Assembly: GCA_025358085.1 (NCBI GenBank)
Contig: JANYKT010000058.1
Coordinates: 7,744-71,743, forward strand
DNA: 64,000 nt
Direction: 5' to 3'
Source: Deltaproteobacteria bacterium
GTDB lineage: Bacteria; Myxococcota; Myxococcia; Myxococcales; 40CM-4-68-19
Both the position numbers and the translations under genes were made by a program. Shown one piece after another: positions 5,183 through 55,565 of the stretch (positions are counted from its first letter, which is position 1; each line of letters opens with the position of its first letter). Under the pieces are notes generated by a model. It made no database searches, was not told where the DNA came from, and was given only the letters and a program-made list of their open reading frames with translations.

Positions 5183-6274
5183 TCAGCGCTGCAGCCGGAG
5201 CGCGGGCCCGCGACCCATCTGGCGCAACCAGCGCAGGTTCGAGGCGAGGGCGCTCCACAGGGTCGGCTCGGCGCTGTAGACGACCCCGTAATCACCGCAG
5301 GTCTTTTGCACGATGGCCGAGACCGCCGGGTAGTGCACGTGGCAGATGCGCGGGAAGAGGTGGTGCTCGATCTGGAAATTCAGCCCGCCCAGGTACCAGC
5401 TGAGAAGCCGGCTGCGGCGCGCGAAGTCAACCGTGGTAGCGACCTGGTGCTCGGCCCAGCCCGCCTGCATCTGGCCGCCCGCGTTCGCCTCGGGAAACTG
5501 GGCCAGGCTCACGCAGTGCGCGAGCTGGAAGACGACCGATGTGACTACACCGAGCGTGCCCACTCCCAGGAGCCAGAGCGGCAGGAGTTTCCAGGTCGGA
5601 TGCAGGAGCAGCGGCACGACGAAGGCCCAGGTCACGAACAGCACCTTCCCACCGAGCGCGCTCGCGAGTGCCCAGCCGCGCGCGGGAGGAAAGCTGTGCG
5701 AGGCGATCCGGCCGCTCGCCAGCTCGCGCGAGTCGTCCAGGAACCACCACTTGAGCGGGAAGACGGCGTACAAAATCCAGATGTAGAGGTGCTGGAAGCG
5801 GTGAAAGCGACGCTGCTCCTGGGAGGGCGCGAGCCGCAGCATCGAGCTTGCCTCGAGGTCCGTGTCGAGCCCGGCGATGTTCGTATAGGTGTGGTGAAGG
5901 ATGTTGTGCTTCTGCCGCCAGACGTGCGAGCTCGCGCCCAGCACGTCGATGCTGAAGCCCATCAGCCGATTGAGCCGGGGACTCTTGGCGTAGCTGCCGT
6001 GGTTGGCGTCGTGCATCACGCTGAAACCGATGCCCGCCATGGCGAGCCCGATGGAGACGGTCAAGAGCCCGGTGAGCACCGGCCCCACGTCGGCGAAGAG
6101 CGCCAATGCGTAGGAGCCCATCAGCCAGGCGGCCAGGATCGCGGTCTTGACCCGGATTGCCCAGCCTCCGTGCGGCTCACGGCCGGTGCTGTCGAAGTAG
6201 GCTTGCACCCTCGACTTGAGGTCGGTGTGGAAGGTGCTGCCGGAGGGGAAGTGGACGCGGGCGGCGGACGACAT
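5183..6274 (-). CDS. Membrane fatty-acid desaturase
   Basis: Three histidine boxes: HDANHGS, HNILHHTYTN, QIEHHLFP. Multiple hydrophobic segments. Confidence 0.8.
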   Translation of the reverse strand: MSSAARVHFPSGSTFHTDLKSRVQAYFDSTGREPHGGWAIRVKTAILAAWLMGSYALALFADVGPVLTGLLTVSIGLAMAGIGFSVMHDANHGSYAKSPRLNRLMGFSIDVLGASSHVWRQKHNILHHTYTNIAGLDTDLEASSMLRLAPSQEQRRFHRFQHLYIWILYAVFPLKWWFLDDSRELASGRIASHSFPPARGWALASALGGKVLFVTWAFVVPLLLHPTWKLLPLWLLGVGTLGVVTSVVFQLAHCVSLAQFPEANAGGQMQAGWAEHQVATTVDFARRSRLLSWYLGGLNFQIEHHLFPRICHVHYPAVSAIVQKTCGDYGVVYSAEPTLWSALASNLRWLRQMGRGPALRLQR

Positions 6275-6430: not shown

Positions 6431-7372
6431 ATGGGCCAGGGATTGATCCAGCTCGGGGGGACTCCGGTCGCGGCAGGCTGCGGCCCCGTGCGCAGGCGCG
6501 ACCCCAAACCCGACTGGCTGAAGGTCAAGATGCCAGGCGGCGGCCGCTATGAGCAGGTCAAACAGACTCTCCGCGAGCTCAACCTGGTCACCGTCTGCGA
6601 GGAGGCCAGCTGCCCCAATGTCGGCGAGTGCTGGGGCTCGGGCACCGCGACCGTCATGCTCATGGGCGACGTCTGCACGCGTGGCTGCCGCTTCTGCGAC
6701 GTCAGCTCGGGCACGCCGGGGCCGCTCGACCCGCTGGAGCCGCGGCACCTGGCCGAAGCGGTCTCGCGACTGGGGCTCGACTACCTTGTAGTCACCTCGG
6801 TCAATCGCGACGAGCTTGCGGATGGCGGCGCAGCTCACTTCGCCACCGCCATCGCCGAGCTGCGCCGCGCGGCGCCGCGCACGCTGGTCGAGGTGCTGAC
6901 GCCGGACTTCCAGGGGCGCTCGTTCGCGCTGGATATGATCATCGAAGCCGAACCGGCCGTCGCCGCCCACAACCTCGAGACGGTGCAGCGCCTGACCCCG
7001 CGGGTCCGCGACCGGCGCGCCTCGTACCAGCAGTCGCTCGAGGTGCTCGCTTATTACAAGGCCGGCGGAATGCGGACCAAGAGCTCCATCATGCTCGGGC
7101 TCGGCGAGACCCGCGAAGAGGTGCTGCAGGCCATGCAGGACCTGCGCGCGGTGGGCTGCGACATCCTCACGCTCGGGCAGTATTTGCGCCCCACCGACAA
7201 GCACCTCGCGGTCGAGGAGTTCGTCCGGCCGGAGGTCTTCCAGCAGCTTGAGCAGGACGGCCTCGGGCTCGGCTTCAAGTTCGTGGCCGCAGGGCCGCTG
7301 GTGCGTTCGTCCTACAAGGCCGGCGAATTCTTCATCCGCAACTGGGTCGAGTCGGCCCGCGCCGTCGGTTAA
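6431..7372 (+). CDS. lipA: Lipoyl synthase
   Basis: CEEASCPNVGECW and CTRGCRFC radical-SAM/auxiliary cluster motifs; KPDWLKVK N-terminus. Confidence 0.9.
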   Translation: MGQGLIQLGGTPVAAGCGPVRRRDPKPDWLKVKMPGGGRYEQVKQTLRELNLVTVCEEASCPNVGECWGSGTATVMLMGDVCTRGCRFCDVSSGTPGPLDPLEPRHLAEAVSRLGLDYLVVTSVNRDELADGGAAHFATAIAELRRAAPRTLVEVLTPDFQGRSFALDMIIEAEPAVAAHNLETVQRLTPRVRDRRASYQQSLEVLAYYKAGGMRTKSSIMLGLGETREEVLQAMQDLRAVGCDILTLGQYLRPTDKHLAVEEFVRPEVFQQLEQDGLGLGFKFVAAGPLVRSSYKAGEFFIRNWVESARAVG

Positions 7373-7385
7373 CAAAATTACCGAA

Positions 7386-8360
7386 ATGCCCATCAACAAT
7401 ATCATCCAGGCGGTCAACGACGCCCTGCGCATCGAGATGCGCCGCGACCCGCGCGTGGTCGTGCTCGGCGAGGACGTCGGCAAGTTCGGCGGCGTCTTCC
7501 GCGCCACCGCTGGCCTCTACGAGGAGTTCGGCGAGGACCGGGTCATCGACACGCCGCTCGCCGAGGCGGGCATCATCGGCGCCGCCATCGGCATGGCCAT
7601 GTACGGCTTGCGGCCCGTCCCCGAGATCCAGTTCAGCGACTTCATCTTCCCTGCCTTCGACCAGATCGTTAATGAATTGGCAAAGCTTCGTTATCGAAGC
7701 GGCGGCCAGTACACCGCGCCGGTCGTCATCCGCACGCCGGTGGGCGGCGGCATCAAGGGCGGGCACTATCACTCGCAGTCGCCCGAGGCGCTCTTCATCC
7801 ACACGCCCGGCTTGCAAGTGGTCTGTCCGTCCAACCCGCACGACGCCAAGGGGCTCTTGCTCTCGGCGCTTCGAGGGGACGATCCGGTGCTCTTCATGGA
7901 GCCGAAGCGCGTGTACCGCGCGTCGAAAGGCGAAGTTCCCGAAGGTGACTACACCATCCCTCTGGGCGTGCTGCGGGTAGCGCGCGAGGGGCGCGGCCTC
8001 ACCGTGATCGCCTGGGGCGCCATGTTTCACGAAGCGCTCGCGGCGGTCACGCAGGCGCCCGAGCTGGACGCCGAGCTGCTCGATCTGCGCACGCTCTGGC
8101 CGCTCGATCTCGACGCCATCGTGCGCAGCGTGCGGAAGACCGGCCGCCTCGCCATCGTGCAGGAGGCGCCGCGGACGTGTGGTCTCGCGGCCGAGATCGC
8201 AGCGCTGGTGCAGGAGCGCTGCTTCACCTCTCTGGAGGCCCCCATCCGCCGCATCACCGGGTGGGACGTGCCGTTTCCGTACACGCTCGAAAATGATTAC
8301 CTGCCGCTCGCGCCGCGCATCCTGCAGGGACTGCGCGAGCTTTCGGCCTACCAGCCTTAA
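7386..8360 (+). CDS. 2-oxoacid dehydrogenase E1 component, beta subunit
   Basis: MPINNIIQAVNDALRIEMRRDPRVVVLGEDVG... is a typical E1-beta N-terminus; the ATG at 7386 lies inside the longer 7248..8360 ORF. Confidence 0.85.
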   Translation: MPINNIIQAVNDALRIEMRRDPRVVVLGEDVGKFGGVFRATAGLYEEFGEDRVIDTPLAEAGIIGAAIGMAMYGLRPVPEIQFSDFIFPAFDQIVNELAKLRYRSGGQYTAPVVIRTPVGGGIKGGHYHSQSPEALFIHTPGLQVVCPSNPHDAKGLLLSALRGDDPVLFMEPKRVYRASKGEVPEGDYTIPLGVLRVAREGRGLTVIAWGAMFHEALAAVTQAPELDAELLDLRTLWPLDLDAIVRSVRKTGRLAIVQEAPRTCGLAAEIAALVQERCFTSLEAPIRRITGWDVPFPYTLENDYLPLAPRILQGLRELSAYQP

Positions 8361-8372
8361 GGAGCACTCCAC

Positions 8373-9734
8373 ATGGCACAATTCGAGTTCAAGCTACCGG
8401 ACATCGGCGAGGGCGTCGTCGAGGGCGAGATCGTCAAGTGGCTGGTGAAAACCGGCGACGACATCATCGAGGACCAGCCGCTCGTCGAGGTGATGACCGA
8501 TAAGGCAACGGTGACCATCCCCTCGCCGCGACGGGGCAAGGTCGTGCGGACGGTGGGCAGCGAAGGCGAGATCGCCAGGGTGCACGGGACGCTGGTGGTG
8601 CTCGAGGTCGGCGGGACCGGGCCGGATACGGCATCGCACGGGCAGCCGAGCAACGCGCAGGCGGCGCCGTCGTTGCCTGCCTCCAGTGCAGGGCAGCCAG
8701 CGCCGCTGCAGACCGCGCACGCGCCGGTGGCGGCGACTTCCGCGAGAGCTTCGGGTGCGGCGGCCGGGGCCGGCGCCTACGGTCACGCGCCTGCCGCCGA
8801 GGTCGATGCATCCGGGGCGAACGGTCAGACCAACGGCGATGGCCGTCGCGTGCTGGCCACGCCGGTCACCCGCAAGATGGCGCGAGAGTTTGGCGTTGAT
8901 CTCTCGCAGTTGCATGGGTCCGGTCCGCAAGGCCGCGTGATGAAGGCCGACCTGCTCGCGCACCAGGAGCGGCCGCAGCCGGCAGCGAGGCCAGCCGCAC
9001 CGTCCCCTGTGCCAAGCGAGGCCGACGAGGTCCGCCCCTTGCGGGGCCTGCGCAAGAGCATCGCGAAGAGCATGGTGCAGAGCCACGGCTTCGTGGTGCC
9101 GTTCACCTTCATCGAAGAGTGCGACACCGCGCGGCTTACCCAACTGCGCGAGCGTCTGAATGGGGAGTTGGTCAAGCGCGGCGAGGCGAAGCTCAGTTAC
9201 CTGCCGTTCATCACCAAGGCGCTGCTGCACGGCTTCCGCAAGTTCCCGGAGCTCAACGCGGTGATGGACGAGCAGAAGCAGGCGCTCATCGTCCGCAAGG
9301 AGTTCAACATCGGCTATGGCGCGGCCACGGACGCGGGGCTGACGGTCTTCGTCATCAAGGACGTCGCGCACAAGTCGGTGAAGGTGCTTGGCGCCGAGCT
9401 GGAGCGACTTTCGAAGGCGGCGCGCGAGAACAAGCTGCAGCTGAGCGATTTCAAGGGCTCGACCTTCACGGTGACCTCGCTGGGCCGCGATGGCGGGCTG
9501 ATGGCGACGCCGGTTGTCAATCATCCCGAGGTGGCCATTCTCGGCATCCACAAGATCAAGGAATGGGCGAAGCCCGTGCGCAACTCCGACGGAAGCGTGA
9601 GCGTGGAGATCGCCGAGCGGATGAACCTGTCCTGCTCGTTCGATCACCGCGTCATCGACGGCCACATCGGCGCGGCTTTTCTCTACGAAGTCATCCGCGC
9701 GCTGGAAGCTCCGGAGCTGCTGCTCATCGATTGA
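8373..9734 (+). CDS. Dihydrolipoamide acyltransferase (E2) of a 2-oxoacid dehydrogenase complex
   Basis: N-terminal lipoyl domain (DIGEGVVEGEIVKWLVKTGD...VMTDKATV), Ala/Pro-rich linker, catalytic DHRVIDG motif. Confidence 0.85.
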   Translation: MAQFEFKLPDIGEGVVEGEIVKWLVKTGDDIIEDQPLVEVMTDKATVTIPSPRRGKVVRTVGSEGEIARVHGTLVVLEVGGTGPDTASHGQPSNAQAAPSLPASSAGQPAPLQTAHAPVAATSARASGAAAGAGAYGHAPAAEVDASGANGQTNGDGRRVLATPVTRKMAREFGVDLSQLHGSGPQGRVMKADLLAHQERPQPAARPAAPSPVPSEADEVRPLRGLRKSIAKSMVQSHGFVVPFTFIEECDTARLTQLRERLNGELVKRGEAKLSYLPFITKALLHGFRKFPELNAVMDEQKQALIVRKEFNIGYGAATDAGLTVFVIKDVAHKSVKVLGAELERLSKAARENKLQLSDFKGSTFTVTSLGRDGGLMATPVVNHPEVAILGIHKIKEWAKPVRNSDGSVSVEIAERMNLSCSFDHRVIDGHIGAAFLYEVIRALEAPELLLID

Positions 9735-9739
9735 TCAGA

Positions 9740-10132
9740 TCAGCCGGGGATGCCGAGGCGGGCCAGCTCGGCCGGAAGCCGGCCGGTGAGCGCAAAAGCG
9801 AGCATGCGAAAGTCGCCGCGGAAGCTCCAGAGCGGGTGCTGGAATGTGGCTGGCCGGTTGTGCTCGATGAAGAAGTGGCCAATCCAGGCGAAGGCATACC
9901 CGCAGAGGAGCGCGGCCAGCACGAATCGCGGCTGCCGTGTCGCGAAGGCGTAGAGGGCGATCAAGACCGCGAGTGAAGTGCCGATGAAGTGCAACCTGCG
10001 GGTGGCCGCGCGGGCGTGCTCGCGCAGATAAAAGGGCCAGAAGTCTTCGAAGGTCTTCATTGCAATTGCCTCGTCGATGGCTTGCGTACCGAAGCCTTCG
10101 ATCAATGTTCCGCGAATGTCGAGCACCGGCAC
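9740..10132 (-). CDS. DUF962/Mpo1-like small membrane protein
   Basis: FEDFWPFYLREHARAATRRLHFIGT pattern typical of the DUF962 family; two or three TM helices. Confidence 0.5.
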   Translation of the reverse strand: MPVLDIRGTLIEGFGTQAIDEAIAMKTFEDFWPFYLREHARAATRRLHFIGTSLAVLIALYAFATRQPRFVLAALLCGYAFAWIGHFFIEHNRPATFQHPLWSFRGDFRMLAFALTGRLPAELARLGIPG

Positions 10133-10266
10133 GCCGTGGTACGCGACGCCGGCCGCGCGCGTCCGCCATCTCGCGGTCCGCCGCGGGATCCTTCTCGATG
10201 TCGCGGTCCGCGAACGTGCGGAAGGCGGTTGCGAGCTGAAGGCCCCTCCTCTACAACTGCGCGCCT

Positions 10267-11325
10267 ATGCATGCTCCCGCCATTCAGCGCGACACGTTGC
10301 TGCGCCTCTACCGCGAGATGGTCCGCCTGCGCGTGCTCGACGAGCGCATGATGACGCTGCAGCGGCAGGGTCGGGTGGGCTTCTACGGCGCTTGCACCGG
10401 CCAGGAAGCGGCCACGCTCGCGAGCGCCATTGTCCTCGAGCCCAGCGACTGGATCTTCCCGGCGTTGCGCGAGAGCGGCGCCATGCCGCTGCGCGGGTTC
10501 CCGATGGTGCCCTATCTGTGCCAGGTGTTCGGCAACTCGGGCGACGAGACGAAGGGCCGGCAGATGCCGAGCCACATGGCTTCCCGCAGCGTCAACCAGG
10601 TCTCGTGGGGCTCGTGCATCGGCACCCAGCTGCCACAGGCGGTGGGCGCGGCGATGGCGGCGAAAATCAAGGGCGACCGCACCGTCATCGCCGCTTACCT
10701 GGGCGACGGCGCCACCAGCGAGGGCGACTTTCATGTGGCGATGAACTTCGCCGGCGTCTTCAAGGCCCCGGTGGTCTTCATCTGCCAGAACAACCACTGG
10801 GCGATCAGCGTGCCGACCTCGAAGCAGACCGCGTCGGAGTCCATCGCCATCAAGGCGCAGGCCTACGGTTTCCCGGGTGTCAAGGTGGACGGCAACGACG
10901 CGGTCGCGGTCTATGAGGCGGTGCGCGCGGCGGTCGATCGCGCGCGGTCGGGCGGAGGGCCGTCGCTGGTCGAGTGCGAGACGTATCGGATTGGCGCGCA
11001 CAGCTCCAGCGACGATCCGACCCGGTATCGCGACGAGCGCGAGGTCGAGGCCTGGCGCAAGCGCGACCCCATCGAGATCCTGCGCGGCCGTCTGAACGCC
11101 ATGGGCATCTGGAGCGCGCTGGACGAGGACGCGCTGCGCGCAAGGCTTCTCTCGGAAGTCAACGCCGCCATCGCCGAAGCCGAGCAGAAGCCGGACCCGC
11201 CGCGCGAAAGCCTCTTCGACGACGTCTACTCGACGCTGCCCTGGACCCTGCGTGAGCAGCGCGAGGAGATGATGGCGGCGCCTACCGTCCCGCGGCCTGA
11301 CGCGAAGACCATCGCGGGGAAATAG
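10267..11325 (+). CDS. 2-oxoacid dehydrogenase E1 component, alpha subunit (TPP-binding)
   Basis: GDGATSEGDFHVAMNFA TPP-binding motif; YRIGAHSSSDD. Confidence 0.85.
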   Translation: MHAPAIQRDTLLRLYREMVRLRVLDERMMTLQRQGRVGFYGACTGQEAATLASAIVLEPSDWIFPALRESGAMPLRGFPMVPYLCQVFGNSGDETKGRQMPSHMASRSVNQVSWGSCIGTQLPQAVGAAMAAKIKGDRTVIAAYLGDGATSEGDFHVAMNFAGVFKAPVVFICQNNHWAISVPTSKQTASESIAIKAQAYGFPGVKVDGNDAVAVYEAVRAAVDRARSGGGPSLVECETYRIGAHSSSDDPTRYRDEREVEAWRKRDPIEILRGRLNAMGIWSALDEDALRARLLSEVNAAIAEAEQKPDPPRESLFDDVYSTLPWTLREQREEMMAAPTVPRPDAKTIAGK

Positions 11326-11332
11326 GATCCCC

Positions 11333-12445
11333 GTGCGCGAGCTGCATGTCCGCAGGCTCGGGCGGGTCGAGTACGAGGACGGTCTCGCGGCGCAGAAGGC
11401 GGTCTTCGACGCGCGCGCGGCCGGGCTGGTGCCCGATACGCTCCTGTTGCTCGAGCACCCGCGGGTGATCACGCTGGGCCGCGGGGCGCACCGCGAGAAC
11501 ATTCTTTGGGATCCCAAGCAATTGGCAGGGCGTGGCTTCGAGGTTTTCGAGACCAACCGCGGCGGTGACGTGACCTACCATGGGCCCGGGCAGGTCGTCG
11601 GCTACCCGATCCTCGATCTGAAGCCCGACCGCAAGGACGTGCGCAAGTACGTCGCCTCGGTCGAAGAGCTGATGATTCGCGTCGCCGCCGACTATGGAAT
11701 CCGCGCGGAGCGAGTCGCGGGCCGCACCGGGATCTGGGTCAGGCCGGGAGGACTGCTGGAAAGGCCCGGCAAACGCCAGGGACCCGAGGACAACGCGGGG
11801 CGCGCGGAAGGCAAGCTGGGCGCCATCGGCGTGCACATCGCGCGCTGGATCACCTCGCACGGGTTCGCCTTCAATGTCTCGACCGACCTGCGCGACTTCG
11901 ACGCCATCGTTCCGTGCGGCATCGCCGACGCGAGCGTCACGTCGCTGCAGGGCCTGCTGGGCCGCACGCCGGCGGACGTGGAGGACCGCTTCATCGCGCG
12001 CGCCGCCGAGGTCTGGGAGTCGCAGGTCTCGGAGGTGCCGTGCGAACTGCGCACCATCTCGGTCGCGATCACCGACGGACGCGGCCGGCTCCTGCTACTG
12101 CGCCGCACCCCCGAGCGCGGCGGGTTCTGGCAGATCCTCACCGGCCGCTGCGAGGCGGGCGAGAGCCCGCTGCAGACCGCGGCGCGCGAGGTCCACGAGG
12201 AGACCGGCTTCTCTCCGACGCTGGCCGAGTTGCGCGATCTCGACTACACGCACGCGTTCGCGCTGCAGCTTCCCGGTGCACCGCGGTTCGCGCGCGAGAG
12301 CGCGTTTGCGCTGCAGGTTTCGGGCGACCCGCGCCTCTCCGGCGAGCACGACGCGTTCCGCTGGTGCACCCTTGAGGAGGCGCTGCCGCTGCTGCCCTTC
12401 GCCGGCCTCCGCCGCGCCGCGCGGCTCGCGGTGGCGCGGGGCTGA
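11333..12445 (+). CDS. lipB: Octanoyltransferase LipB fused to a C-terminal NUDIX hydrolase domain
   Basis: N-terminal two thirds is LipB-like (RVEYEDGLAAQKAVFDARAAG...NRGGDVTYHGPGQVVGYP...KLGAIGVHIARWITSHGFAFNV). The C-terminus carries a Nudix box GRCEAGESPLQTAAREVHEETGF. Confidence 0.75.
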   Translation: MRELHVRRLGRVEYEDGLAAQKAVFDARAAGLVPDTLLLLEHPRVITLGRGAHRENILWDPKQLAGRGFEVFETNRGGDVTYHGPGQVVGYPILDLKPDRKDVRKYVASVEELMIRVAADYGIRAERVAGRTGIWVRPGGLLERPGKRQGPEDNAGRAEGKLGAIGVHIARWITSHGFAFNVSTDLRDFDAIVPCGIADASVTSLQGLLGRTPADVEDRFIARAAEVWESQVSEVPCELRTISVAITDGRGRLLLLRRTPERGGFWQILTGRCEAGESPLQTAAREVHEETGFSPTLAELRDLDYTHAFALQLPGAPRFARESAFALQVSGDPRLSGEHDAFRWCTLEEALPLLPFAGLRRAARLAVARG

Positions 12446-12767: not shown

Positions 12768-13367
12768 ATGAAGCCGCTACAGCTCGAGCTGCCCACCTGG
12801 GGCGGGCGCCGCAAAGGCGCCGGGCGGAAGCGCAAGGGGCCGGTGCGTCTCGTCTCGCACCGGGCGCGACCGGCACATCTGGCGCGCCATCCGCTGCACG
12901 CGGTGTGGCGGACGCGGCCCGACGTCCCCAGCCTACGCAAGCGCGCCGTGATGGAGTTGCTGCGCGTGGCCTTGGCCGCGGGAGGCTCGCGCGCGACGTT
13001 CCGGCTGGTCCATTACTCGGTCCAGGGCAATCACCTGCACCTGGTCGTCGAGGCTCACGACAAGGTGGCGCTGTCGCGCGGGATGCAGGGGCTGGCGGTG
13101 CGCATCGCGCGGGCCGTCAACACCGCCGCGGGCCGCAGGGGCCGCGTCTTTGCCGACCACTACTTCGCCCGGGAGTTGCGCACGCCGGCCGAGGTCCGCC
13201 GCGCGGTCCGCTATGTGCTGGACAACCACCTGCACCACGCGGCGGGCCGCGCTCTCCAGGCGGACTCTTGCGCCGCGCCCGTCACGGCGCCGCGGACATG
13301 GTTGCTCACCGTCGGGTGGCTGAAGAGCCGCGCCGGACCGCTGCCGGTCGCGTACTGGTCAGGCTGA
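12768..13367 (+). mobile_element. IS200/IS605-family Y1 (HUH) transposase-like gene (RAYT-like / COG1943), solitary
   Basis: HUH motif NHLHLVVEA and the catalytic Tyr region RRAVRYVLDNH. No recognisable flanking inverted repeats and no nearby tnpB. Confidence 0.55.
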
Positions 13368-13532: not shown

Positions 13533-14360
13533 TCAGAGGTCGACGACGAGCCCCTCGCGCGCCGCGAAGGCGCCGGGCATGATCTTGCGCGCCAACCGCG
13601 CGAGCTTCTCGATGTCGCGGTCGTCGCGGTCTGGCGCGTGGTGAAAGAGAGCCAGCTTTCTGGCGCCTGCGCGCTGTGCGAGCTGGGCGCCGATCTCGTA
13701 CGTCGAGTGCCCCCAGCCCTTCTTCGACAGCGGTCCGTCGGCATACTCAGCCGGCGTGTATTGCGCGTCGCAGATCAGGAGGTCCACGTCGCGCGCCAAC
13801 TCGACAAGGCGCTCGTCGGCCGCGCTGCCGTGCTCGAAATCGGTGGCGTAGACCATCGACCGGCCGCCGTGCTCGAGCCGGAAGCCGAGCGCGCCGCCGG
13901 GATGATTCAGCTCGGCGGCGCGGAGCATTCCTTTGCCGATGCGCGCTGTTCCGCCTCCCTGCAACGGCACGAAGCTGATGCGCGCGCTCAGCGCTTCCAG
14001 CTCTACCGGGAAGTAGGGTTCGACCATCTGGCCGGAGAGGATCTGCCGCACGTCGCGGCCCTTGCGGGTGGGGCCGTGGATGGTCAGCTCCGAGCGCGGA
14101 TCGTACGCTGGAGCGAAGAACGGCAGGCCCGCGATGTGGTCCCAATGGTAGTGCGAGAGGAAGAGGCTGGCGCGCACTGGGCCGCGGCTTGCGAGCTCGA
14201 CGCCGAGTGCGCGCAGGCCGGTGCCGAGGTCGAAGATCACGGTCTCGTCGTCGAAACGAACCTCGACGCAAGACGTGTTACCGCCGGTAAGGAGCGTCTG
14301 CTTGCCGGGCGAGGCGAGGCTGCCCCGCACGCCCCAGAACCGCACCTGGAGCAGCGGCTT
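13533..14360 (-). CDS. MBL-fold metallo-hydrolase
   Basis: SHYHWDHIAG (HxHxDH) motif. Start chosen at MKPLLQVRFWGVRGS, which has a plausible RBS; the ORF itself extends to 14480. Confidence 0.7.
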   Translation of the reverse strand, partial: KPLLQVRFWGVRGSLASPGKQTLLTGGNTSCVEVRFDDETVIFDLGTGLRALGVELASRGPVRASLFLSHYHWDHIAGLPFFAPAYDPRSELTIHGPTRKGRDVRQILSGQMVEPYFPVELEALSARISFVPLQGGGTARIGKGMLRAAELNHPGGALGFRLEHGGRSMVYATDFEHGSAADERLVELARDVDLLICDAQYTPAEYADGPLSKKGWGHSTYEIGAQLAQRAGARKLALFHHAPDRDDRDIEKLARLARKIMPGAFAAREGLVVDL

Positions 14361-14445
14361 CATTTTGACCTTGGAAGGGGAAGCCATCGACTCAGCAGCC
14401 TGCCGCGAGAAGAGCTCGGCCGCAAGAAAGCTCAAGACAAGAATC

Positions 14446-15114
14446 TCAAGCAGACGTCTGGTCCAATCCGGGCAGTTCAATCAAGTGACCCGTGCGCTCG
14501 CGCTTGGTCATCAGATAGCCGAGGTTGTGCGGATTGACCTGCGCAGTGGAGGCAATCCGGTGGCGCACCTGGATGCCCATGTTTTCCAGGCCGGCGATCT
14601 TGAGCGGATTGTTGGTGATGAGATCGATGCTGCGCACGCCCAGCTGCTTCAGCATGCAGGCTGCAATGTCGTACCGGCGCAGGTCGTCAGGGAAGCCGAG
14701 CTGGCGATTGGCTTCGTAAGTGTCGGCGCCGCGCGCCTGCAGCGCATAAGCGCGAATCTTGTTGCCAAGGCCGATGCCGCGGCCTTCCTGCCGCAGGTAG
14801 ATGACGGCGCCGCGCTCGCTCTTGCCGACCAGATCCAGAGCGTGCTCGAGCTGCTCTCGGCAGTCGCACTTCAGGCTGCCGAAGATCTCACTGGTCAAGC
14901 ACTCGCTGTGGACGCGCACTGGCACGCCTTCCTGACCCTGGAGGTCTCCCTTGACGGCAACCACGTGCTCCTTGTCCGTGCCCTTCTCGCGAAAGACCAT
15001 CGCGCGCAGCGGGCCATGGCGTGTCGGCAGCGGCGCTTCGGCATAGAGCGAAACGAGCGTGTCATTCGCGGCAGGAACACTGTGTAGAAAGGCGCGGGCC
15101 TGATCGAGAGCCAT
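14446..15114 (-). CDS. ribA: GTP cyclohydrolase II (RibA-type, single domain)
   Basis: VHSECLTSEIFGSLKCDCREQLE and YLRQEGRGIGLGNKIRAYALQ motifs. ATG at 15112-15114 is preceded by a CAGGAG RBS. Confidence 0.8.
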   Translation of the reverse strand: MALDQARAFLHSVPAANDTLVSLYAEAPLPTRHGPLRAMVFREKGTDKEHVVAVKGDLQGQEGVPVRVHSECLTSEIFGSLKCDCREQLEHALDLVGKSERGAVIYLRQEGRGIGLGNKIRAYALQARGADTYEANRQLGFPDDLRRYDIAACMLKQLGVRSIDLITNNPLKIAGLENMGIQVRHRIASTAQVNPHNLGYLMTKRERTGHLIELPGLDQTSA

Positions 15115-15232
15115 CGTTGAGTTCTCCTGTGTGCATCCTCTGATGCGTCGAGCGCGAGCGAGATTCCGGCGAAATCGACCAAACCGCTCACCGCCTCCGG
15201 CATCAAAGGAGATAAGTGATAGGAGACAAATC

Positions 15233-15595
15233 ATGCATCAGATAGAGGCCGAATTTACCTTCGCCGCCGCGCACCGCCTGCCGCGCTACCAGGGCAAGTG
15301 CTTCAACCTGCACGGCCACAACTACCGCTTTCGTGTCTCGCTGCGGGGCGAGCCTGACGCGCACTCGGGGATCTTCGTGGACTTCGGCGATGTCGAGAAG
15401 GCAGTCAAAGCCAACATCCTCGATCAGTGTGACCACACGAACCTCAATGACTTTATCGGGAATCCGACGGCCGAGAATCTCGCCAGCTGGATATGGGAGC
15501 GGCTCGACGGCAAGCTGCCTGGCCTCGCCGAAGTGCGGCTCTGGGAGATCCCCACCAGCTGCGTCGTCTACCGTGGACCGCAGGGAAAATTCTGA
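15233..15595 (+). CDS. 6-pyruvoyl-tetrahydropterin synthase family protein (PTPS/QueD-like)
   Basis: CFNLHGHNY (CxxxHGH) catalytic motif and EAEFTFAAAHRLP; AGGAGA RBS. Its stop overlaps the folE start (TGATG). Confidence 0.8.
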   Translation: MHQIEAEFTFAAAHRLPRYQGKCFNLHGHNYRFRVSLRGEPDAHSGIFVDFGDVEKAVKANILDQCDHTNLNDFIGNPTAENLASWIWERLDGKLPGLAEVRLWEIPTSCVVYRGPQGKF

Positions 15596-16182
15596 TGCTT
15601 CTCGACCGCAAAGCGCGGCCGCCGAACCGCGCCGCCATGGAGAAGGCGGTCGCGGACCTGCTTGAAGCGAGTGGCGCCGAGTTGGACGCCGAGACGCGGG
15701 ACACGCCGGGACGCGTGGCCAAGGCCTTCGCGGAAGATCTGCTGGACGGCTACGGGCAGGATCCCGTCGCGGCGCTCGCGAGTTCGCTGGTGCCAGCGCC
15801 GCGCAAGGGCGAGCTCGTGATTGCCTCACAGCTGGACTTTCACTCGATGTGTCCACATCACCTGCTTCCGTACAAAGGCACCGCGGCGGTGGGCTACCTC
15901 GCGGACGCGCACCTGGTCGGCTTCGGCAAGATCGCCGAGGCGGTCGACGCGCTGTCGCACCGGCTCATCCTGCAGGAGACGCTGGTGCATCGCCTCTGCG
16001 AGGCCGTGATGACGGCGCTGCAGCCGCTGGGCGCGGGCGTGGTGATCACCGCCGAGCACGGCTGCATGCAGGTGCGCGGGCCGATGCGCCGGCAGAGCCG
16101 CATCACGGTCGAGGCCTGGGCGGGCGCCTTCGAGCACGACGCCGAGTTGCGCAGCTCGCTGGCGCGCCGGGCCGGGGGATGA
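15595..16182 (+). CDS. folE: GTP cyclohydrolase I
   Basis: QLDFHSMCPHHLLPY...GYLADAHLVGFGKIAEAVD...QETL... is the FolE signature. Confidence 0.85.
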   Translation: MLLDRKARPPNRAAMEKAVADLLEASGAELDAETRDTPGRVAKAFAEDLLDGYGQDPVAALASSLVPAPRKGELVIASQLDFHSMCPHHLLPYKGTAAVGYLADAHLVGFGKIAEAVDALSHRLILQETLVHRLCEAVMTALQPLGAGVVITAEHGCMQVRGPMRRQSRITVEAWAGAFEHDAELRSSLARRAGG

Positions 16183-16841
16183 GCGCGCTGCGCGGGAAGG
16201 TCTGCGTGGTGACGGGCGCGTCGCGCGGTATCGGCCTCGCCATCGCGGAGTTGCTTGCAGCCGAGGGAGCGCGCCTGTCGGTCTGTGCCGTGCAAAAGCC
16301 GCCGCGGTTTGGCGAACACGCCGCCCGCTGCGACGTGGCGGACGCGAAGGAGGTCGAAAGCTTCTTCGCCGAGTCGCAGAGGCGGCTGGGTCCGCCGGAC
16401 ATTCTGGTCATCAACGCTGGTGTCCTCGAGCGCGGCGCGTTGGACGAACTCTCGGAGCGGCAGTGGGACCGGGTGCTCGGCGTCAACCTGAAAGGCGCCT
16501 TCCTCTGCGCGCGCGCCGTCTGGCCGTCGATGCGGTCGCGCAAGAGCGGCCGCATCATCGCCCTGGGGTCGATCAGCGGCACGCTCGGCACCAGTTTCGC
16601 GTCGGCTTACAACGCCTCGAAGTGGGGCCTGACGGGCTTCATCAAGTCCATCGCCGAGGAGGGCCGTGACCACGGCATCTTTTGCGCGACGGTGCTGCCG
16701 GGCTCGACCGACACCGATATGCTTCGCCAGACAACGTTCGCACCGCAGATGACGCCGCTCGATGTGGCGGGCGTGGTGCGCTACCTCGCTGCCGACGCGC
16801 CGATGGCGATGACCGGCAGCGCAGTGGAGGTCTTCGGGTGA
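16179..16841 (+). CDS. Short-chain dehydrogenase/reductase (candidate pteridine or sepiapterin reductase by context)
   Basis: TGASRGIGLAIA Rossmann motif and the YNASK catalytic motif. The start overlaps the folE stop (ATGA). Confidence 0.8.
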   Translation: MSALRGKVCVVTGASRGIGLAIAELLAAEGARLSVCAVQKPPRFGEHAARCDVADAKEVESFFAESQRRLGPPDILVINAGVLERGALDELSERQWDRVLGVNLKGAFLCARAVWPSMRSRKSGRIIALGSISGTLGTSFASAYNASKWGLTGFIKSIAEEGRDHGIFCATVLPGSTDTDMLRQTTFAPQMTPLDVAGVVRYLAADAPMAMTGSAVEVFG

Positions 16842-18190
16842 TGAGTCTTGCAGGTGAGCTGAAGGCGCTGGACCTCGACGCGCAGGAGCCGACCGAGGCG
16901 TACGCGCGCGACGAGAGCGGCACCGGCGACTACCCGCCGCAAGCGGTGGTGCTGGCGCATTCAGTCCTCGACGTGCAGAAGGTTCTGCGTTTTTCCAAAC
17001 ATCGCAAGATCCCGGTGGTGCCCCGCGGCGGCGGCTCCGGCAAGAGCGGCGGCGCTTTGGCGGAGCGCGGCGGCATCGTGCTTTCCCTCGAGAAGATGAA
17101 TCGCATCGTCGAGATTTCGCGGCCCGACATGGTCTGCGTCGTCGAGCCCGGCGTGATCTTGCAGGACTTGCAAGTCGCGGTTGAAGAGCAGGGCTTGTTC
17201 TACCCGCCTGACCCGAACTCGCAGGCCTGGTGCACGCTGGGCGGCAACCTTGCGCACAACGCCGGCGGCCCGCGCGCGCTCAAGTACGGCGTCACCCGCG
17301 ACTACGTGCTGGGCGTCGAGGCGGTGCTGCCGACCGGAGAATTCATTCATGCTGGCCACCGCAGCTGGAAAGGCGTCGCCGGCTACGACATCACCCAGCT
17401 GCTGGTCGGCAGCGAAGGCACGCTCGGGGTGATCACGCAGGCGACGCTCAAGCTCATTCCGCTCCCGCGCCGCGTGGCGACCATGCTGGCCTTCTTTCCC
17501 GACGAGGCGAAGGCGGCGCTGGGCGTGCAGAAGATCTTCGGCGCCGGCCTCCTGCCGCGCACCTGCGAGCTGATGGACGGACCGACCATGCGCGCCCTGA
17601 AAGGCAAGGCTCCGTTCCAATTCCCCGATGAGGTCGGCGGCGCGCTCATCGTCGAGCACGACGGGAACGGCGACGGCGTGATGGAGGACCTCGCGCAATC
17701 GGGGGAGATGTGCATGGAAGCCGGGGCCATCGACGTGGTCGCGGCGCAGGACGAATCACAGCGTCGGCGCATCTGGGAGACGCGGCGGATGATCTCGGTG
17801 GCCATGAGCTCGATCCGGCCGCACAAGATCAGCGAGGACGTAGCGGTGCCGCGCGGGCGGCTGGTCGACCTGATCAATGCGGTGCGCGAGATCGGTGCCC
17901 GGTACAGCCTGGAAACAGCCTGCTACGGGCACGCGGGCGACGGCAACATGCACGTGAACTTGCTCTTCGCCAGCGCCGAGGAGCGCGTCCGCGGGCAGAA
18001 GGCGGTCGACGAGGTGATCCAGACCGCGATCGATTTCGGCGGCACCATCACCGGAGAACACGGCGTGGGCCTCGCGAAGCGTGCTTTCCTGGCGCGCGAG
18101 CAGGGCCCGGATCTGATCGCGCTGCAGAAGCGGGTCAAGCGCGCCTTCGATCCTGAAGACCTGTTGAATCCGGGAAAGATCTTTCCATGA
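16841..18190 (+). CDS. FAD-linked oxidase (GlcD / D-lactate dehydrogenase family, FAD_binding_4)
   Basis: VVPRGGGSGKSGGAL FAD-binding region and the C-terminal HVNLL...GTITGEHGVG motif. The start overlaps the SDR stop. Confidence 0.8.
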   Translation: MSLAGELKALDLDAQEPTEAYARDESGTGDYPPQAVVLAHSVLDVQKVLRFSKHRKIPVVPRGGGSGKSGGALAERGGIVLSLEKMNRIVEISRPDMVCVVEPGVILQDLQVAVEEQGLFYPPDPNSQAWCTLGGNLAHNAGGPRALKYGVTRDYVLGVEAVLPTGEFIHAGHRSWKGVAGYDITQLLVGSEGTLGVITQATLKLIPLPRRVATMLAFFPDEAKAALGVQKIFGAGLLPRTCELMDGPTMRALKGKAPFQFPDEVGGALIVEHDGNGDGVMEDLAQSGEMCMEAGAIDVVAAQDESQRRRIWETRRMISVAMSSIRPHKISEDVAVPRGRLVDLINAVREIGARYSLETACYGHAGDGNMHVNLLFASAEERVRGQKAVDEVIQTAIDFGGTITGEHGVGLAKRAFLAREQGPDLIALQKRVKRAFDPEDLLNPGKIFP

Positions 18191-18753
18191 GCGCACCCTG
18201 TTCCTTTCCTGCGCGGAGACGTTTGGCCGCGCCCAAGCTCGCTGCCGGCTGTCTCTTTGCGTTGGTGCTCGCCTGCGATATCCCGCTGCACGCTGGCCGC
18301 GGCAGCGCGCCGCGCGGCATCGACCAGCAGGCGCTACCGGTGGGCGCCAGAGCCCAGCCGGTGGGCCTCGGCGCTCACCTTCCGGCCGCGGTGGTTTTCT
18401 ACCGCGGCCATTGGTGACCCTATTGCAAGAGGCAGCTCGGTGAGCTGCAAAAAGCACTCCCGGAATTCACCAAACGCCACGCCTTTCTGGTCGCGGTGTC
18501 CGTCGATGACCCGAGCACTTCGCGCAGCCTGGCCGAGACGTTGGGCCTCCGCTTCCCCATCGTCTCCGACGAGCAGCGCAAGCTGATCCGCAAGTACGGC
18601 GTGCTCGATGCCGAGAACGACATCGCCTGGCCTGCCCTTTTCGTGATCGGCCGCGATGGGAAAGTCGCTTGGCGCTCCCTCGCGGATTCGCCTTCGAAGC
18701 GCGCTGGCGTCAACGAAATCCTGGCGGCGCTGGATGGGCTGGTCGCGCCTTGA
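18187..18753 (+). CDS. Redoxin (AhpC/TSA-fold) lipoprotein with an in-frame TGA at the first position of its CxxC motif; candidate selenoprotein (U-P-Y-C)
   Basis: ORFs 18187..18417 and 18496..18753 are in the same frame and separated only by the TGA at 18415-18417. Together they read ...AAVVFYRGHW[TGA]PYCKRQLGELQKALPEF...LRFPIVSDEQRKL...FVIGRDGKVAW. The N-terminus has a lipobox (LFALVLAC). The start overlaps the FAD-oxidase stop. Confidence 0.55.
18432..18448 (+). ncRNA. Candidate bacterial SECIS hairpin (GCAGCUC-GGU-GAGCUGC) beginning 15 nt after the TGA
   Basis: Perfect 7-bp stem with a GGU apical loop. The loop G lies about 22 nt downstream of the UGA, within the bacterial SECIS window, and the loop resembles the GGUC loop of E. 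coli fdhF. Confidence 0.5.
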
Positions 18754-18805
18754 CCGGCGACGCGTGCTGCTCTACGGTCCGCCGCCCTTGGACCAGCCCC
18801 ACCCG

Positions 18806-19429
18806 ATGATGCCCGAGGCTCCCCGCACCGACGGAGAGCCCACCGACCGCGAGCTGGTCGAGCTTTCGCAGAAGGGCGACGGCGCTGCGTTTGCGCGGCT
18901 GGTGGAGCGGCACCAGCGCCAGCTCTACCGTCTGGCGCTGCGCATGACGGGCTCCGAGGCGGACGCCAACGAAGTCCTGCAGGAAGCTTTCCTCAACGCC
19001 TGGCAGAAGCTGCCGGCCTTCCGCGGTGAGTCGCAATTCTCGAGTTGGCTTTATCGGATCGCGGCCAACAGCGCGCTGATGCGGCTGCGTCGCAAGCGCC
19101 GCGCGCCCGATGGGTTGCCAGACCAGCCGCTCGAACTGCAGGCGCCCAAGTTTTCGTCCGAAGGCCTCCTCGACCCGCCTCCCTACAGCGACTGGTCGCA
19201 GCGCGCCGACGAGAAGATGATGTCCAGCCAGTTGGGTGTCGCCATCGAGAAAGCGGTGCAGGAGCTTCCGGAAGACTATCGAACGGTGTTCCTCCTCAAG
19301 GATGTGGACGGTCTTTCCAACGAAGACATCGCGACCTCGCTCGACCTCACGGTGCCGGCCGTGAAGAGCCGCCTGCACCGCGCGCGCCTCGCGCTTCGAG
19401 AGAAGCTGGGAGATTTCTTTGGAGCGTGA
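18806..19429 (+). CDS. ECF-family RNA polymerase sigma factor
   Basis: Sigma-70 region 2 (NEVLQEAFLNAWQKLPAFRGESQFSSWLYRIA) and region 4 (VFLLKDVDGLSNEDIATSLDLTVPAVKSRLHRAR). ATG at 18806. Confidence 0.8.
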   Translation: MMPEAPRTDGEPTDRELVELSQKGDGAAFARLVERHQRQLYRLALRMTGSEADANEVLQEAFLNAWQKLPAFRGESQFSSWLYRIAANSALMRLRRKRRAPDGLPDQPLELQAPKFSSEGLLDPPPYSDWSQRADEKMMSSQLGVAIEKAVQELPEDYRTVFLLKDVDGLSNEDIATSLDLTVPAVKSRLHRARLALREKLGDFFGA

Positions 19430-51552: not shown

Positions 51553-52005
51553 CTAATGCAGCAGCGCGCCGGTGAACTCGGCATCGTCGGGGAGCGGCTT
51601 GCGGCCGGCCGCCCCGGCATCGATCTCGTGGTAATGCTCGACGCGCTTCTCGCCGTAGCGCCAGCAAAGCAGCACCGCGCGGCCGCGCAGCTTGGTGCGG
51701 AAGTCCACCAGGCCGTCCGCCGCCTTCACTTCCACGCCAAGTTCGGACACCTCGCGCAGGATGCCGCGCAATTCGTCGATGATGGCCGCGGCGATCCGCT
51801 GCAGCCGCTGCACCGCAGGGGGCGCGGCCGGATCGATCTGGATCTCGGGCCTCTGCATGGGGTGCCGCGCCTGCGACAGCTGGCCCTGGACCTCGCCGAG
51901 CTTGTCGCGCAGTCTGCGTGCGTGCTCGAACTGTGCTTGCAGCGTGTCGACCAGCGCGTTGGCCTGGCTGAGCGAGAAGAGCCGCGTCTGGAAGGAGCTA
52001 TCCAC
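51553..52005 (-). CDS. Hypothetical protein (DUF2203-like?)
   Basis: 150-aa ORF with a coiled-coil N-terminus; no firm family assignment. Confidence 0.35.
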   Translation of the reverse strand: MDSSFQTRLFSLSQANALVDTLQAQFEHARRLRDKLGEVQGQLSQARHPMQRPEIQIDPAAPPAVQRLQRIAAAIIDELRGILREVSELGVEVKAADGLVDFRTKLRGRAVLLCWRYGEKRVEHYHEIDAGAAGRKPLPDDAEFTGALLH

Positions 52006-54191: not shown

Positions 54192-55565
54192 TCAGGCCGC
54201 GGGCTGCTCGACCTGGTCTCGCCACCACTGCTGGCCGGCGGCCGGGAGCTGGTCAATCGGGTCGTAATACTCATACCGGCGCGTCAGTGCGTCGGGGTCG
54301 TTGGCCTCGATGCCAGTCTTGTAGTTCTTGGTCCAGTACGAGATCCCTTTTTCGCGGTCGTATTCCGCGACCTGGTGGACCCACCGCTTGCCGACGAAGG
54401 GAACGTCGCAGACGATGCGTGGGGTGGCGAAGCCCGGGAGATATCCCATGATGTCGTGCTGAAGCTTCTGCGCCACGGCCACGGAAGTGCGCCAGTGCTC
54501 CGAATTCGGAATCAGATCGCACATATAGAAGTAATAGGGGAGCACGCGCGCGTGGTCCTGCAGCATGAAGCAAAGATCCAGCAGGGCCTTCTGCGAATCA
54601 TTTACTCCGCGCAACAAGACCCCTTGATTGCGCACGTCGCGGAAACCCATGGAGAGCAATTTCTGCGCGGCGCGGCCGAACAGCGGCGTCACCTGATTGG
54701 CGTGATTGACGTGGGTATGCATCGCCAGCGAAACATTCCGCTCGACAGCCTTGCGCGCCAACCGGTCCAGCGCGTGCAGTACGTCGTCCTGGAGGAAGTG
54801 CTGGGGAATGCCCATCAATCCCTTCGAGGCCAGCCGGATATCGCGGACGTTCTCGATATCGAGCAGCGCGGAGACGAAGCTCTCGAGTGATTGAATGGGC
54901 AGGTTCGCGATATCGCCGCCCGAGACCACCACGTCGCGCACTTGAGGGGTCGCGCGCAGGTATTCGAGCATTTGCAAGTGCCGGTCCTTCTGCTGCACCA
55001 CGAACTTGAGCTTCTTCACCTGCGGCACGCTGTTGCCGACCAGATCCATTCGAGTGCAATGGCCGCAATACTGCGGGCAGGTCGAGAGCATCTCGGCCAA
55101 TACCTTGGTCGGATAACGATGCGTCAGGCCCTCGACCTTCCACATCTCCTGCTCGTGCAGGGAATCGCGCGACGCCCTGGGATGCGACGGCCAGTCGGTC
55201 CGGCGATCGCTGAAGGCCGGCAGCATATAGTGCCGCAGGGGGTCCGCCCGCAGGTCCCGCTCATCCAGCGTGTTGAGCATATGCGGCGTAATCAGGATCG
55301 ACATCGTCGCGCGCTCGCGCTGGTCGCGCTCCAGGTCCAATGCCAGCTCGTCACTGAGCAGGTCGCCGAGGACTTCTTTCAGCTCGCGCAGGTTCTTGAC
55401 CGTGTTCTTGCGCTGCCACAGCGCGCTCTCCCACTCGATCCTGGTGACAGCGCGATAGCCGGGCAGGCGCGTCCAATCGGGCTCGATGAAGGCGCGGTCC
55501 AAAGGATATTTGAACGGCTGACCACTCTGCTCCGGCACTGCGACTGCAACAACTGGAACGCTCAC
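54192..55565 (-). CDS. KamA-family radical SAM aminomutase paralog (lysine/glutamate 2,3-aminomutase-like), 457 aa
   Basis: CPQYCGHCTR cluster motif; C-terminal conservation with lysine 2,3-aminomutases. Confidence 0.75.
   Translation of the reverse strand: MSVPVVAVAVPEQSGQPFKYPLDRAFIEPDWTRLPGYRAVTRIEWESALWQRKNTVKNLRELKEVLGDLLSDELALDLERDQRERATMSILITPHMLNTLDERDLRADPLRHYMLPAFSDRRTDWPSHPRASRDSLHEQEMWKVEGLTHRYPTKVLAEMLSTCPQYCGHCTRMDLVGNSVPQVKKLKFVVQQKDRHLQMLEYLRATPQVRDVVVSGGDIANLPIQSLESFVSALLDIENVRDIRLASKGLMGIPQHFLQDDVLHALDRLARKAVERNVSLAMHTHVNHANQVTPLFGRAAQKLLSMGFRDVRNQGVLLRGVNDSQKALLDLCFMLQDHARVLPYYFYMCDLIPNSEHWRTSVAVAQKLQHDIMGYLPGFATPRIVCDVPFVGKRWVHQVAEYDREKGISYWTKNYKTGIEANDPDALTRRYEYYDPIDQLPAAGQQWWRDQVEQPAA

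Follow-up and report, generated by a model that had tools for sequence, protein, structure and literature searches.

What would an operon make in which a member of the 6-pyruvoyl-tetrahydropterin synthase (PTPS) family, GTP cyclohydrolase I (FolE), a short-chain dehydrogenase/reductase (SDR), a GlcD-type flavoprotein and a redoxin are encoded one directly behind the other? The question is raised by a locus in a 64,000-nucleotide stretch of myxobacterial DNA (contig JANYKT010000058.1, positions 7,744 to 71,743; hereafter the window) with a GC content of about 68%. The locus sequence is identical to that of contig JAYUNZ010000546.1 in the metagenome-assembled genome (MAG) GCA_043761225.1, and relatives in the databases bear the name "Myxococcales bacterium". 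An original prediction, made from the letters alone, had seen in the five plus-strand genes, divergent from a GTP cyclohydrolase II (RibA), a textbook tetrahydrobiopterin (BH4)-like route that may lead to a modified pterin or flavin-like cofactor coupled to a periplasmic redox enzyme. The six genes, their families and the overlapping junctions that it described are all present where it placed them, as judged from the listed and translated open reading frames (ORFs) and from the letters themselves, with every family call backed by Pfam and NCBIfam profile matches. As set out below, the evidence points to a different unit and to a PTPS-family enzyme of another type.

In the locus, RibA on the minus strand is followed across a gap of 118 bp by the five plus-strand genes, whose stop and start codons overlap at each junction. 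Direct reading of the sequence gives TGATG between queD (as the PTPS-family gene is called here) and folE (15593-15597), ATGA between folE and the SDR gene (16179-16182), TGATG between the SDR gene and glcD (16839-16843) and ATGA between glcD and the redoxin gene (18187-18190). A caution against reading much into these overlaps is that the window has them in at least five further pairs of same-strand genes. Being this frequent, overlaps on their own signal only an operon and co-transcription, and the evidence that the block is held together beyond chance comes from its conservation in other genomes.

Conservation was surveyed with the SDR as anchor, a protein with more than 120 database clusters at an identity of at least 64%, in loci drawn from species-representative genomes and from metagenome and MAG contigs, against which all window proteins were scored. 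FolE lies 5' of the SDR in 24 of 24 loci with upstream DNA, over a range of SDR identity of 40-100%, and is directly adjacent in each except one with a gap of about 0.9 kb (L004); in most lineages the FolE-SDR junction overlaps or nearly abuts. The queD gene is adjacent in 18 loci across the Myxococcota and Acidobacteriota, its product always carrying a CxxxHGH motif, and every Myxococcota locus with queD has a glcD-like gene 3' of the SDR within the operon. The module is found in several Myxococcota lineages including Anaeromyxobacter (as MAGs), and queD-folE-SDR recurs in the Acidobacteriota, where in Vicinamibacteria (L089-L091) a complete, divergent glcDEF operon lies beside yjbQ-queD-folE-SDR. 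Around this core the outer neighbours turn over from lineage to lineage: lipB-nudix and an extracytoplasmic function (ECF) sigma factor in the window's clade; rpmI-rplT-pheS-pheT and integration host factor (IHF), and korAB, in Anaeromyxobacter (L093, L006-L008); yjbQ and doxX in Vicinamibacteria; and a MerR-like gene or DUF2203 in Polyangia (L005, L011-L013). Since the redoxin and RibA are both confined to the window's clade or its closest relatives, the conserved unit is queD-folE-SDR(-glcD) and not five genes plus RibA. The comparison of gene neighbourhoods that had been proposed as a check thus bears out a PTPS-family/FolE/SDR core shared by Myxococcota and Acidobacteriota, and does not bear out the five-gene block, in which the redoxin, like the neighbouring RibA, is limited to particular lineages.

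Other genes were seen repeatedly in the vicinity of the module. DUF2203 is encoded directly 5' of FolE-SDR in two Polyangia loci (L005:8675-9112; L011:1689-2120), a DUF2203 fragment lies between the PTPS and FolE genes in L092 (3932-4060), and the window homologue (51589-51984, minus strand) is located 33 kb from the operon. The YjbQ (UPF0047) gene of the Vicinamibacteria, at approximately 6400-7000 in L089-L091, is co-directional with queD-folE-SDR and overlaps queD in L091, and a PNPOx-like gene is conserved in the same loci a few kilobases downstream on the opposite strand.

The first gene of the unit (15233-15595, plus strand, 120 amino acids), preceded by GGAG 8 nt 5' of its ATG, encodes a T-fold protein of the PTPS family (PF01242, E=5e-38) that passes the QueD equivalog model TIGR03367 with 98.8 bits against a cut-off of 89.25. 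Within COG0720, CxxxHGH marks the QueD/PTPS-I enzymes of queuosine synthesis, CxxxxxHGH the PTPS-II enzymes of BH4 synthesis and ExxHGH the PTPS-III enzymes of folate synthesis, with CExxHGH as the motif of PTPS-I/III hybrids (PMC5041015). The window protein reads C23-F-N-L-H27-G-H29, that is CxxxHGH with three residues between the Cys and HGH, and this spacing is the same in all nine aligned homologues from the module. The PTPS-II motif Cx5HGH is present neither in the window protein nor in its homologues. Nor is that of PTPS-III, the replacement for FolB: no aligned homologue has ExxHGH or CExxHGH, and the motif Cys is followed by F, K or P throughout, never by E. The zinc ligands and the catalytic Cys, Asp-His and Glu are kept, and the best PDB matches are QueD from P. 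aeruginosa and E. coli at 1e-23 to 1e-26, compared with 1e-12 for mammalian PTPS. By every available criterion the enzyme is thus predicted to be of the QueD type, with 6-carboxy-5,6,7,8-tetrahydropterin (CPH4) as the product expected from its signature.

FolE, encoded by the second gene (15595-16182, plus strand, 195 amino acids), matches PF01227 at E=5e-45 and is a divergent member of its family, since it scores below every NCBIfam cut-off for FolE (162.7 against 174, 156.7 against 162, and 119.5 against 181.6). All zinc-binding and catalytic residues are present, with CPHHLLP and EHGCM corresponding to Cys110/His112/His113 and His179/Cys181 of the E. coli enzyme, in which Cys110, His113 and Cys181 bind zinc and His112 and His179 are catalytic. 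The equivalent of His179 is kept as His in the window, in the close relatives L081 and L082, in the Polyangia loci and in L092, and is Gln in the Anaeromyxobacter-type locus L093 and the Vicinamibacteria-type loci L089-L091 (EQLCM and DQ[STL]C[LM]). These Gln-type counterparts of the window gene are located at L093:9264-10004, L089:7463-8014, L090:7406-7999 and L091:7339-7893. Because E. coli FolE mutants at His179, reportedly, in work by Bracher and colleagues from 1999 (cited in PMC7750480), halt at the formamidopyrimidine triphosphate intermediate, the FolEs of L093 and L089-L091 may not be ordinary GTP cyclohydrolases I. Were this the only, housekeeping FolE, such low scores and a change of His179 to Gln in two lineages would not be expected.

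The third gene (16179-16841, plus strand) encodes a short classical SDR of 220 amino acids (PF00106, E=2e-47) with the motifs TGASRGIG and NAG and the residues S131/Y144/K148. The FolE-linked proteins form a subfamily with marks that are absent from generic FabG, namely SISGTLGT, AAYNASKWGL, a C-terminal EVFG and the loss of some 14 residues behind PGSxDTxML. R16 in TGASRGIG and an Arg that follows strand 2 in the consensus of the family are of the kind that goes with NADP(H) in SDRs, which suggests NADP(H) use here. The best PDB sequence matches are FabG enzymes at 31-37% identity, and assignment by structure took us no further: the AlphaFold2 model is confident (predicted local distance difference test score of 95), but its top PDB matches are all of the FabG type and the fold does not discriminate. 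Pteridine reductases of the FolM/PTR1 type are marked by TGX3RXG instead of TGX3GXG (PMC1971073), and an assignment to that group was rejected, as the glycine motif is TGX3GXG with the second Gly invariant in 56 family members. A close relationship to the Chlorobium sepiapterin reductase (PDB 2BD0) was also rejected, at 29% identity and no nearer than FabG, and no sepiapterin reductase occurs among the best 60 PDB sequence matches or the best 50 fold matches. The SDR does share with 2BD0 the same short C-terminal architecture, and PDB entry 2et6 is the top or second match of both.

Last in the conserved unit is a stand-alone GlcD-family FAD-dependent D-2-hydroxyacid dehydrogenase/oxidase of 449 amino acids (16841-18190, plus strand), whose start is the ATG at 16841 with an alternative in-frame GTG at 16838. 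It has the FAD_binding_4 and FAD-oxidase_C domains (PF01565 and PF02913), falls below the TIGR00387 glcD cut-off (408 bits against 567.9) and matches glycolate oxidase 9qgz (9e-94), LctD (5e-86) and D-lactate dehydrogenase (5e-71) in the PDB. Neither GlcF nor a separate GlcE was found in the window. An assignment as alkyl-dihydroxyacetone-phosphate synthase of ether-lipid synthesis was rejected, as that match covers the FAD domain only (1e-31) as opposed to the full-length match to glycolate oxidase and D-lactate dehydrogenase types (1e-94), and orthology with the GlcD of Vicinamibacteria is unsupported at 36% identity.

The genes that would ordinarily reveal the destination of a FolE product are missing from the surroundings. 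A six-frame motif scan of the window, together with Pfam searches of 20 other ORFs, found none of queC, queE, queF, tgt, queA, folK, folP, pterin-4a-carbinolamine dehydratase (PCD) or an aromatic amino-acid hydroxylase. Likewise, search and precomputed Pfam lists showed no queC, queE, queF, tgt or queA in the 8-10 kb around the module in 25 related loci, no pterin-dependent hydroxylase, PCD or nitric oxide synthase in the window or those 25 loci, and no folB, folK, folP or folX near the module. Literature searches on such a set of genes in myxobacteria, on QueD with an SDR, glycolate oxidase and YjbQ, and on the function of YjbQ returned nothing relevant. The original prediction had set the locus apart from queuosine synthesis on the grounds that queC and queE are absent, which is indeed the case here; the PTPS-family protein is of the QueD type by both motif and equivalog model. 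The textbook BH4 route is not supported: in place of Cx5HGH, the motif of the BH4 enzyme, CxxxHGH and a QueD equivalog match are found, and the SDR carries none of the features of known pterin reductases, having TGX3GXG, 29% identity to the Chlorobium enzyme and FabG as its best matches.

One further gene of the window may bear on dihydroneopterin triphosphate. The product of 11333-12445 (plus strand) joins LipB, an octanoyl/lipoyl transferase, to a Nudix domain (12035-12445). NudB, the diphosphatase of dihydroneopterin triphosphate, is by a wide margin the family that this domain matches best (E=1e-14), although the 54 bits do not reach the cut-off of 103. The fusion is kept in the window's clade and is encoded directly 5' of queD in L003.

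From these gene identities, motifs, operon structure and pattern of conservation we propose that the functional unit would be the four-gene operon queD-folE-sdr-glcD, a housekeeping-type module of the Myxococcota and Acidobacteriota for a GTP-derived pterin or deazapurine precursor. FolE would convert GTP to 7,8-dihydroneopterin triphosphate, and the QueD-type enzyme, going by its signature, would eliminate the triphosphate and rearrange or cleave the side chain to give CPH4 by way of a 6-pyruvoyl-like intermediate. The SDR would most likely be an NADPH-dependent reductase of a FolE- or QueD-derived pterin, acting on a side-chain carbonyl or on the ring, and the GlcD-type flavoprotein would oxidize a D-2-hydroxyacid somehow linked to the pterin chemistry. 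The action of the SDR and of the flavoprotein on FolE or QueD products, like each chemical step after FolE, is our inference. Stated as a whole, the reading that a FolE-coupled QueD-type enzyme, together with an NADPH-type SDR, turns the product of FolE into a pterin or CPH4-derived compound, with the flavoprotein handling a linked D-2-hydroxyacid, is the one that we favor, at a confidence that stops somewhat short of even. It is more doubtful, though worth entertaining, that queD-folE-SDR with the GlcD-type flavoprotein constitutes an undescribed GTP-derived pathway leading to a new unconjugated tetrahydropterin or CPH4-derived metabolite, with a FolE paralogue that has perhaps diverged in chemistry where His179 is replaced by Gln.

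Several observations weigh against the proposal. The four genes need not occur together, since queD and glcD are both missing beside FolE-SDR in the Polyangia loci L005 and L011-L013, and the Anaeromyxobacter block has classic housekeeping genes around it, a setting compatible with duty in queuosine and folate synthesis accompanied by passengers. The SDR is, in sequence as in fold, an ordinary reductase of the FabG-like kind, the 36% identity to Vicinamibacteria GlcD is no closer than family background such that the second association with a GlcD-type protein could be coincidence, and the substrates of the SDR and the flavoprotein are assigned by indirect reasoning.

One competing explanation is housekeeping adjacency, in which queD and folE would belong to the synthesis of queuosine (and folate), queC and queE being encoded elsewhere, and the SDR and the D-2-hydroxyacid dehydrogenase would be unrelated passengers of a conserved operon. 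The QueD signature and hidden Markov model score, the rpmI-rplT-pheST-ihf neighbourhood in Anaeromyxobacter and the generic appearance of the SDR and GlcD-like proteins all suit it, as does the clustering of FolE with QueD, a known queuosine pattern (PMC5041015). Passengers, however, should not stay with FolE at 40-50% identity across classes and phyla amid full turnover of the neighbours, nor should a passenger SDR constitute a subfamily of its own that is found only in this position. With the SDR tied to FolE in two phyla, the GlcD-family association recurring in another arrangement in the second phylum, and FolE His179 changed to Gln in two lineages, plain housekeeping adjacency is hard to accept, and we regard it as unlikely. 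We consider improbable, too, what is left of the BH4-like route, namely FolE, a PTPS activity that releases 6-pyruvoyl-tetrahydropterin and the SDR as a sepiapterin reductase, with the FAD oxidase and exported redoxin extending it to a modified cofactor system. Three families of the BH4 route do occur together in two phyla with no queuosine gene nearby, a FabG-type carbonyl reductase would chemically suit the diketo side chain, 6-pyruvoyl-tetrahydropterin is a substrate for E. coli QueD, and the shared C-terminal architecture and 2et6 match connect the SDR to 2BD0. These points are set against a CxxxHGH rather than Cx5HGH motif in every PTPS homologue of the module, the QueD equivalog score, an SDR just 29% identical to 2BD0, a window and 25 related loci in which no pterin-dependent hydroxylase, PCD or nitric oxide synthase was found, and a redoxin and RibA that are not conserved with the block.

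A route of the folate or monapterin type would cast the SDR as an analogue of FolM, PTR1 or dihydrofolate reductase, have the LipB-fused NudB-like Nudix domain dephosphorylate dihydroneopterin triphosphate, and leave the GlcD-type protein to dispose of glycolate derived from side-chain glycolaldehyde. The deepest conserved pair, FolE-SDR without queD in the Polyangia, would fit such a route, folE-folX-folM operons offer a precedent (PMC9758184; PMC1971073), NudB is the best family of a Nudix domain that in one locus is encoded directly 5' of queD, and glycolate oxidase genes adjoin the triad in Vicinamibacteria. Yet the SDR carries TGX3GXG and not the TGX3RXG of FolM and PTR1, the NudB score lies at about half its cut-off, folB, folK, folP and folX are absent nearby, and an SDR is not the expected catalyst for the conversion of glycolaldehyde to glycolate; of the explanations considered, this strikes us as quite improbable. 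The processing of a FolE product by the QueD-type enzyme and the FolE-linked SDR therefore remains our preferred, if tentative, reading of the operon.

The fifth plus-strand gene is of interest in its own right. Its frame is open from 18187 to 18753 save for one TGA at 18415-18417, which sits exactly at the position of the first Cys of the redox motif GHW-U-PYC, where U is selenocysteine. With U read as C, the full-length product of 188 amino acids matches PF00578 at E=4e-27, with an AhpC-TSA domain of residues 67-162 that spans the TGA at codon 77. The TGA is kept in five loci (L084-L088), in which gene callers split the gene into two ORFs. A hairpin that resembles a selenocysteine insertion sequence, GCAGCUC-GGU-GAGCUGC (18432-18448, plus strand), with a 7-bp stem and a GGU loop, begins 14 nt after the UGA; it is invariant in the window, L084 and L085 while the flanking codons vary, shows no covariation and has an unexceptional folding z of -1.0. 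No Rfam model matched the hairpin, and the window contains no tRNA gene. At the N-terminus, the combination of RRR with a hydrophobic stretch and a conserved A-C-D suggests a lipoprotein signal, and the best NCBIfam match is a SelL-related redox protein family, far under its cut-off (44 against 120). The protein is probably a TlpA/ResA-like UxxC selenoprotein, a member of an already known kind, judging from codon and motif, and it adds one such protein to those that gene callers break into two fragments.

Among the related loci the redoxin is confined to L084-L088, all with an SDR identity of 83% or more, and is absent in L081-L083 and L002-L003, in which other genes directly follow glcD. It is wedged between glcD and a pair encoding an ECF sigma factor and a zf-HC2 anti-sigma factor, and since this pair directly follows glcD in slightly more distant relatives, the redoxin is a recent insertion, a neighbour in a shallow lineage without a demonstrable tie to the pterin genes. 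Within that lineage it would be co-transcribed with glcD. A coupling of a periplasmic redox enzyme to a pterin cofactor is thus backed by nothing beyond adjacency in one shallow lineage.

RibA (14446-15114, minus strand, 222 amino acids) is the single-domain, divergently transcribed GTP cyclohydrolase II that had been described, with PF00925 as its sole domain and matches to TIGR00505 (223.8 bits against 205.85) and NF001591 (244 against 148), and the shared region between it and queD, put earlier at about 120 bp, measures 118 bp (15115-15232). It occurs in the window's clade only, in L001 and L081-L088, and is absent in L003 and all other lineages. The gene 3' of ribA encodes a metallo-beta-lactamase (MBL)-fold hydrolase (13533-14387, minus strand, with the start uncertain at either 14387 or 14435; PF12706/PF00753) that has weak matches to RNase Z and cyclic-nucleotide phosphodiesterase models, overlaps ribA in L082 and is absent in L001 and L003. 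RibA and the MBL protein are neighbours acquired in a shallow lineage, and RibA, like the redoxin, is not assignable to the pathway. The intergenic region is conserved among the closest three of six aligned relatives only and contains no sigma-70-like promoter match, and a scan for promoters and terminators gave matches no more numerous than in shuffled sequences. Rfam searches of the whole window at the gathering threshold and of 14900-18900 at E<=5 found no relevant riboswitch or leader RNA. A weak terminator-like hairpin with 3 GC pairs is located at 14430-14451 (minus strand), directly after the ribA stop and before the MBL gene, in a region where the count of such hairpins does not exceed that of shuffles.

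Additional features of the window lie further from the operon. Between lipB-nudix and the MBL gene, an IS200/Y1-transposase-like gene (12768-13367, plus strand; a weak match to PF01797) is shared with the closest relatives L085, L087 and L088 only. A fatty-acid desaturase gene (5183-6274, minus strand) and an Mpo1-like gene of the 2-hydroxy fatty acid dioxygenase family (9740-10132, minus strand) interleave with lipA and the genes for 2-oxoacid dehydrogenase E1-beta, E2 and E1-alpha (6431-11325), and do so also in L081, L085 and L087. A KamA-like pair is found at 54192-55565 (minus strand) and at about 56801-57943 (plus strand), followed by a DedA/VTT membrane protein; the latter gene of the pair has Radical_SAM and LAM_C (lysine 2,3-aminomutase) domains, and the former a CxxxCxxC motif and no Pfam match at E<=1e-5.

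COG0720, the group of PTPS and QueD, and FolE are classic cases of pathway misassignment by similarity-based annotation. A QueD-type enzyme tied to FolE and one SDR subfamily in two phyla, away from any queuosine gene nearby, leaves two prospects: either a step attached to early deazapurine or pterin synthesis has gone unrecognized, or a bacterial unconjugated-pterin route has been assembled from non-canonical parts. Either outcome would lengthen the short list of bacterial pterin cofactors and refine signature-motif rules that are applied to thousands of genomes. Anaeromyxobacter is a genus with cultured members, and the occurrence of the module there, so far in MAGs only, would permit direct testing if cultured strains carry it. 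We regard the module as a moderately interesting lead from comparative genomics.

How the locus relates to systems already described depends on which of its parts is compared. The redoxin is like the known UxxC selenoproteins of the AhpC/TSA and TlpA-like, SelL-related groups in its in-frame UGA for the first Cys of CxxC and its candidate insertion-sequence hairpin downstream with a G-rich loop, and differs from them in its SelL score far below the cut-off, its lipoprotein-type signal and its restriction at this position to one shallow Myxococcota lineage. The flavoprotein shares FAD_binding_4 and FAD-oxidase_C with GlcDEF, D-lactate dehydrogenase and LctD, and has a strong match to glycolate oxidase 9qgz, whereas it is a stand-alone subunit with a sub-cut-off GlcD score that is embedded in a folE operon. 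The tetrahydromonapterin operon folE-folX-folM of E. coli and Pseudomonas, whose unconjugated pterin product has poorly understood roles (PMC9758184; PMC1971073), likewise has FolE co-transcribed with an SDR; the module lacks FolX, its SDR lacks TGX3RXG, and a QueD-type enzyme and a flavoprotein are found instead. With the BH4 pathway of Chlorobium tepidum and cyanobacteria (GTP cyclohydrolase I, PTPS-II and sepiapterin reductase) it has in common the same three superfamilies in one operon that ends in an NADPH-type classical SDR, but it departs from that pathway in its QueD-type motif, in the distance of the SDR from 2BD0 and in having no pterin-dependent enzyme nearby. Similarity to the folE-queD genes of queuosine and preQ0 synthesis (PTPS-I, COG0720) consists in FolE standing beside a T-fold enzyme with CxxxHGH and a QueD equivalog score above the cut-off, although here no queE, queC, queF or tgt is adjacent in 25 loci and their usual places are taken by the SDR and often by the GlcD-type flavoprotein. 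As all of the families involved are already known, the arrangement is best described as a variant on GTP-to-pterin or deazapurine operons.

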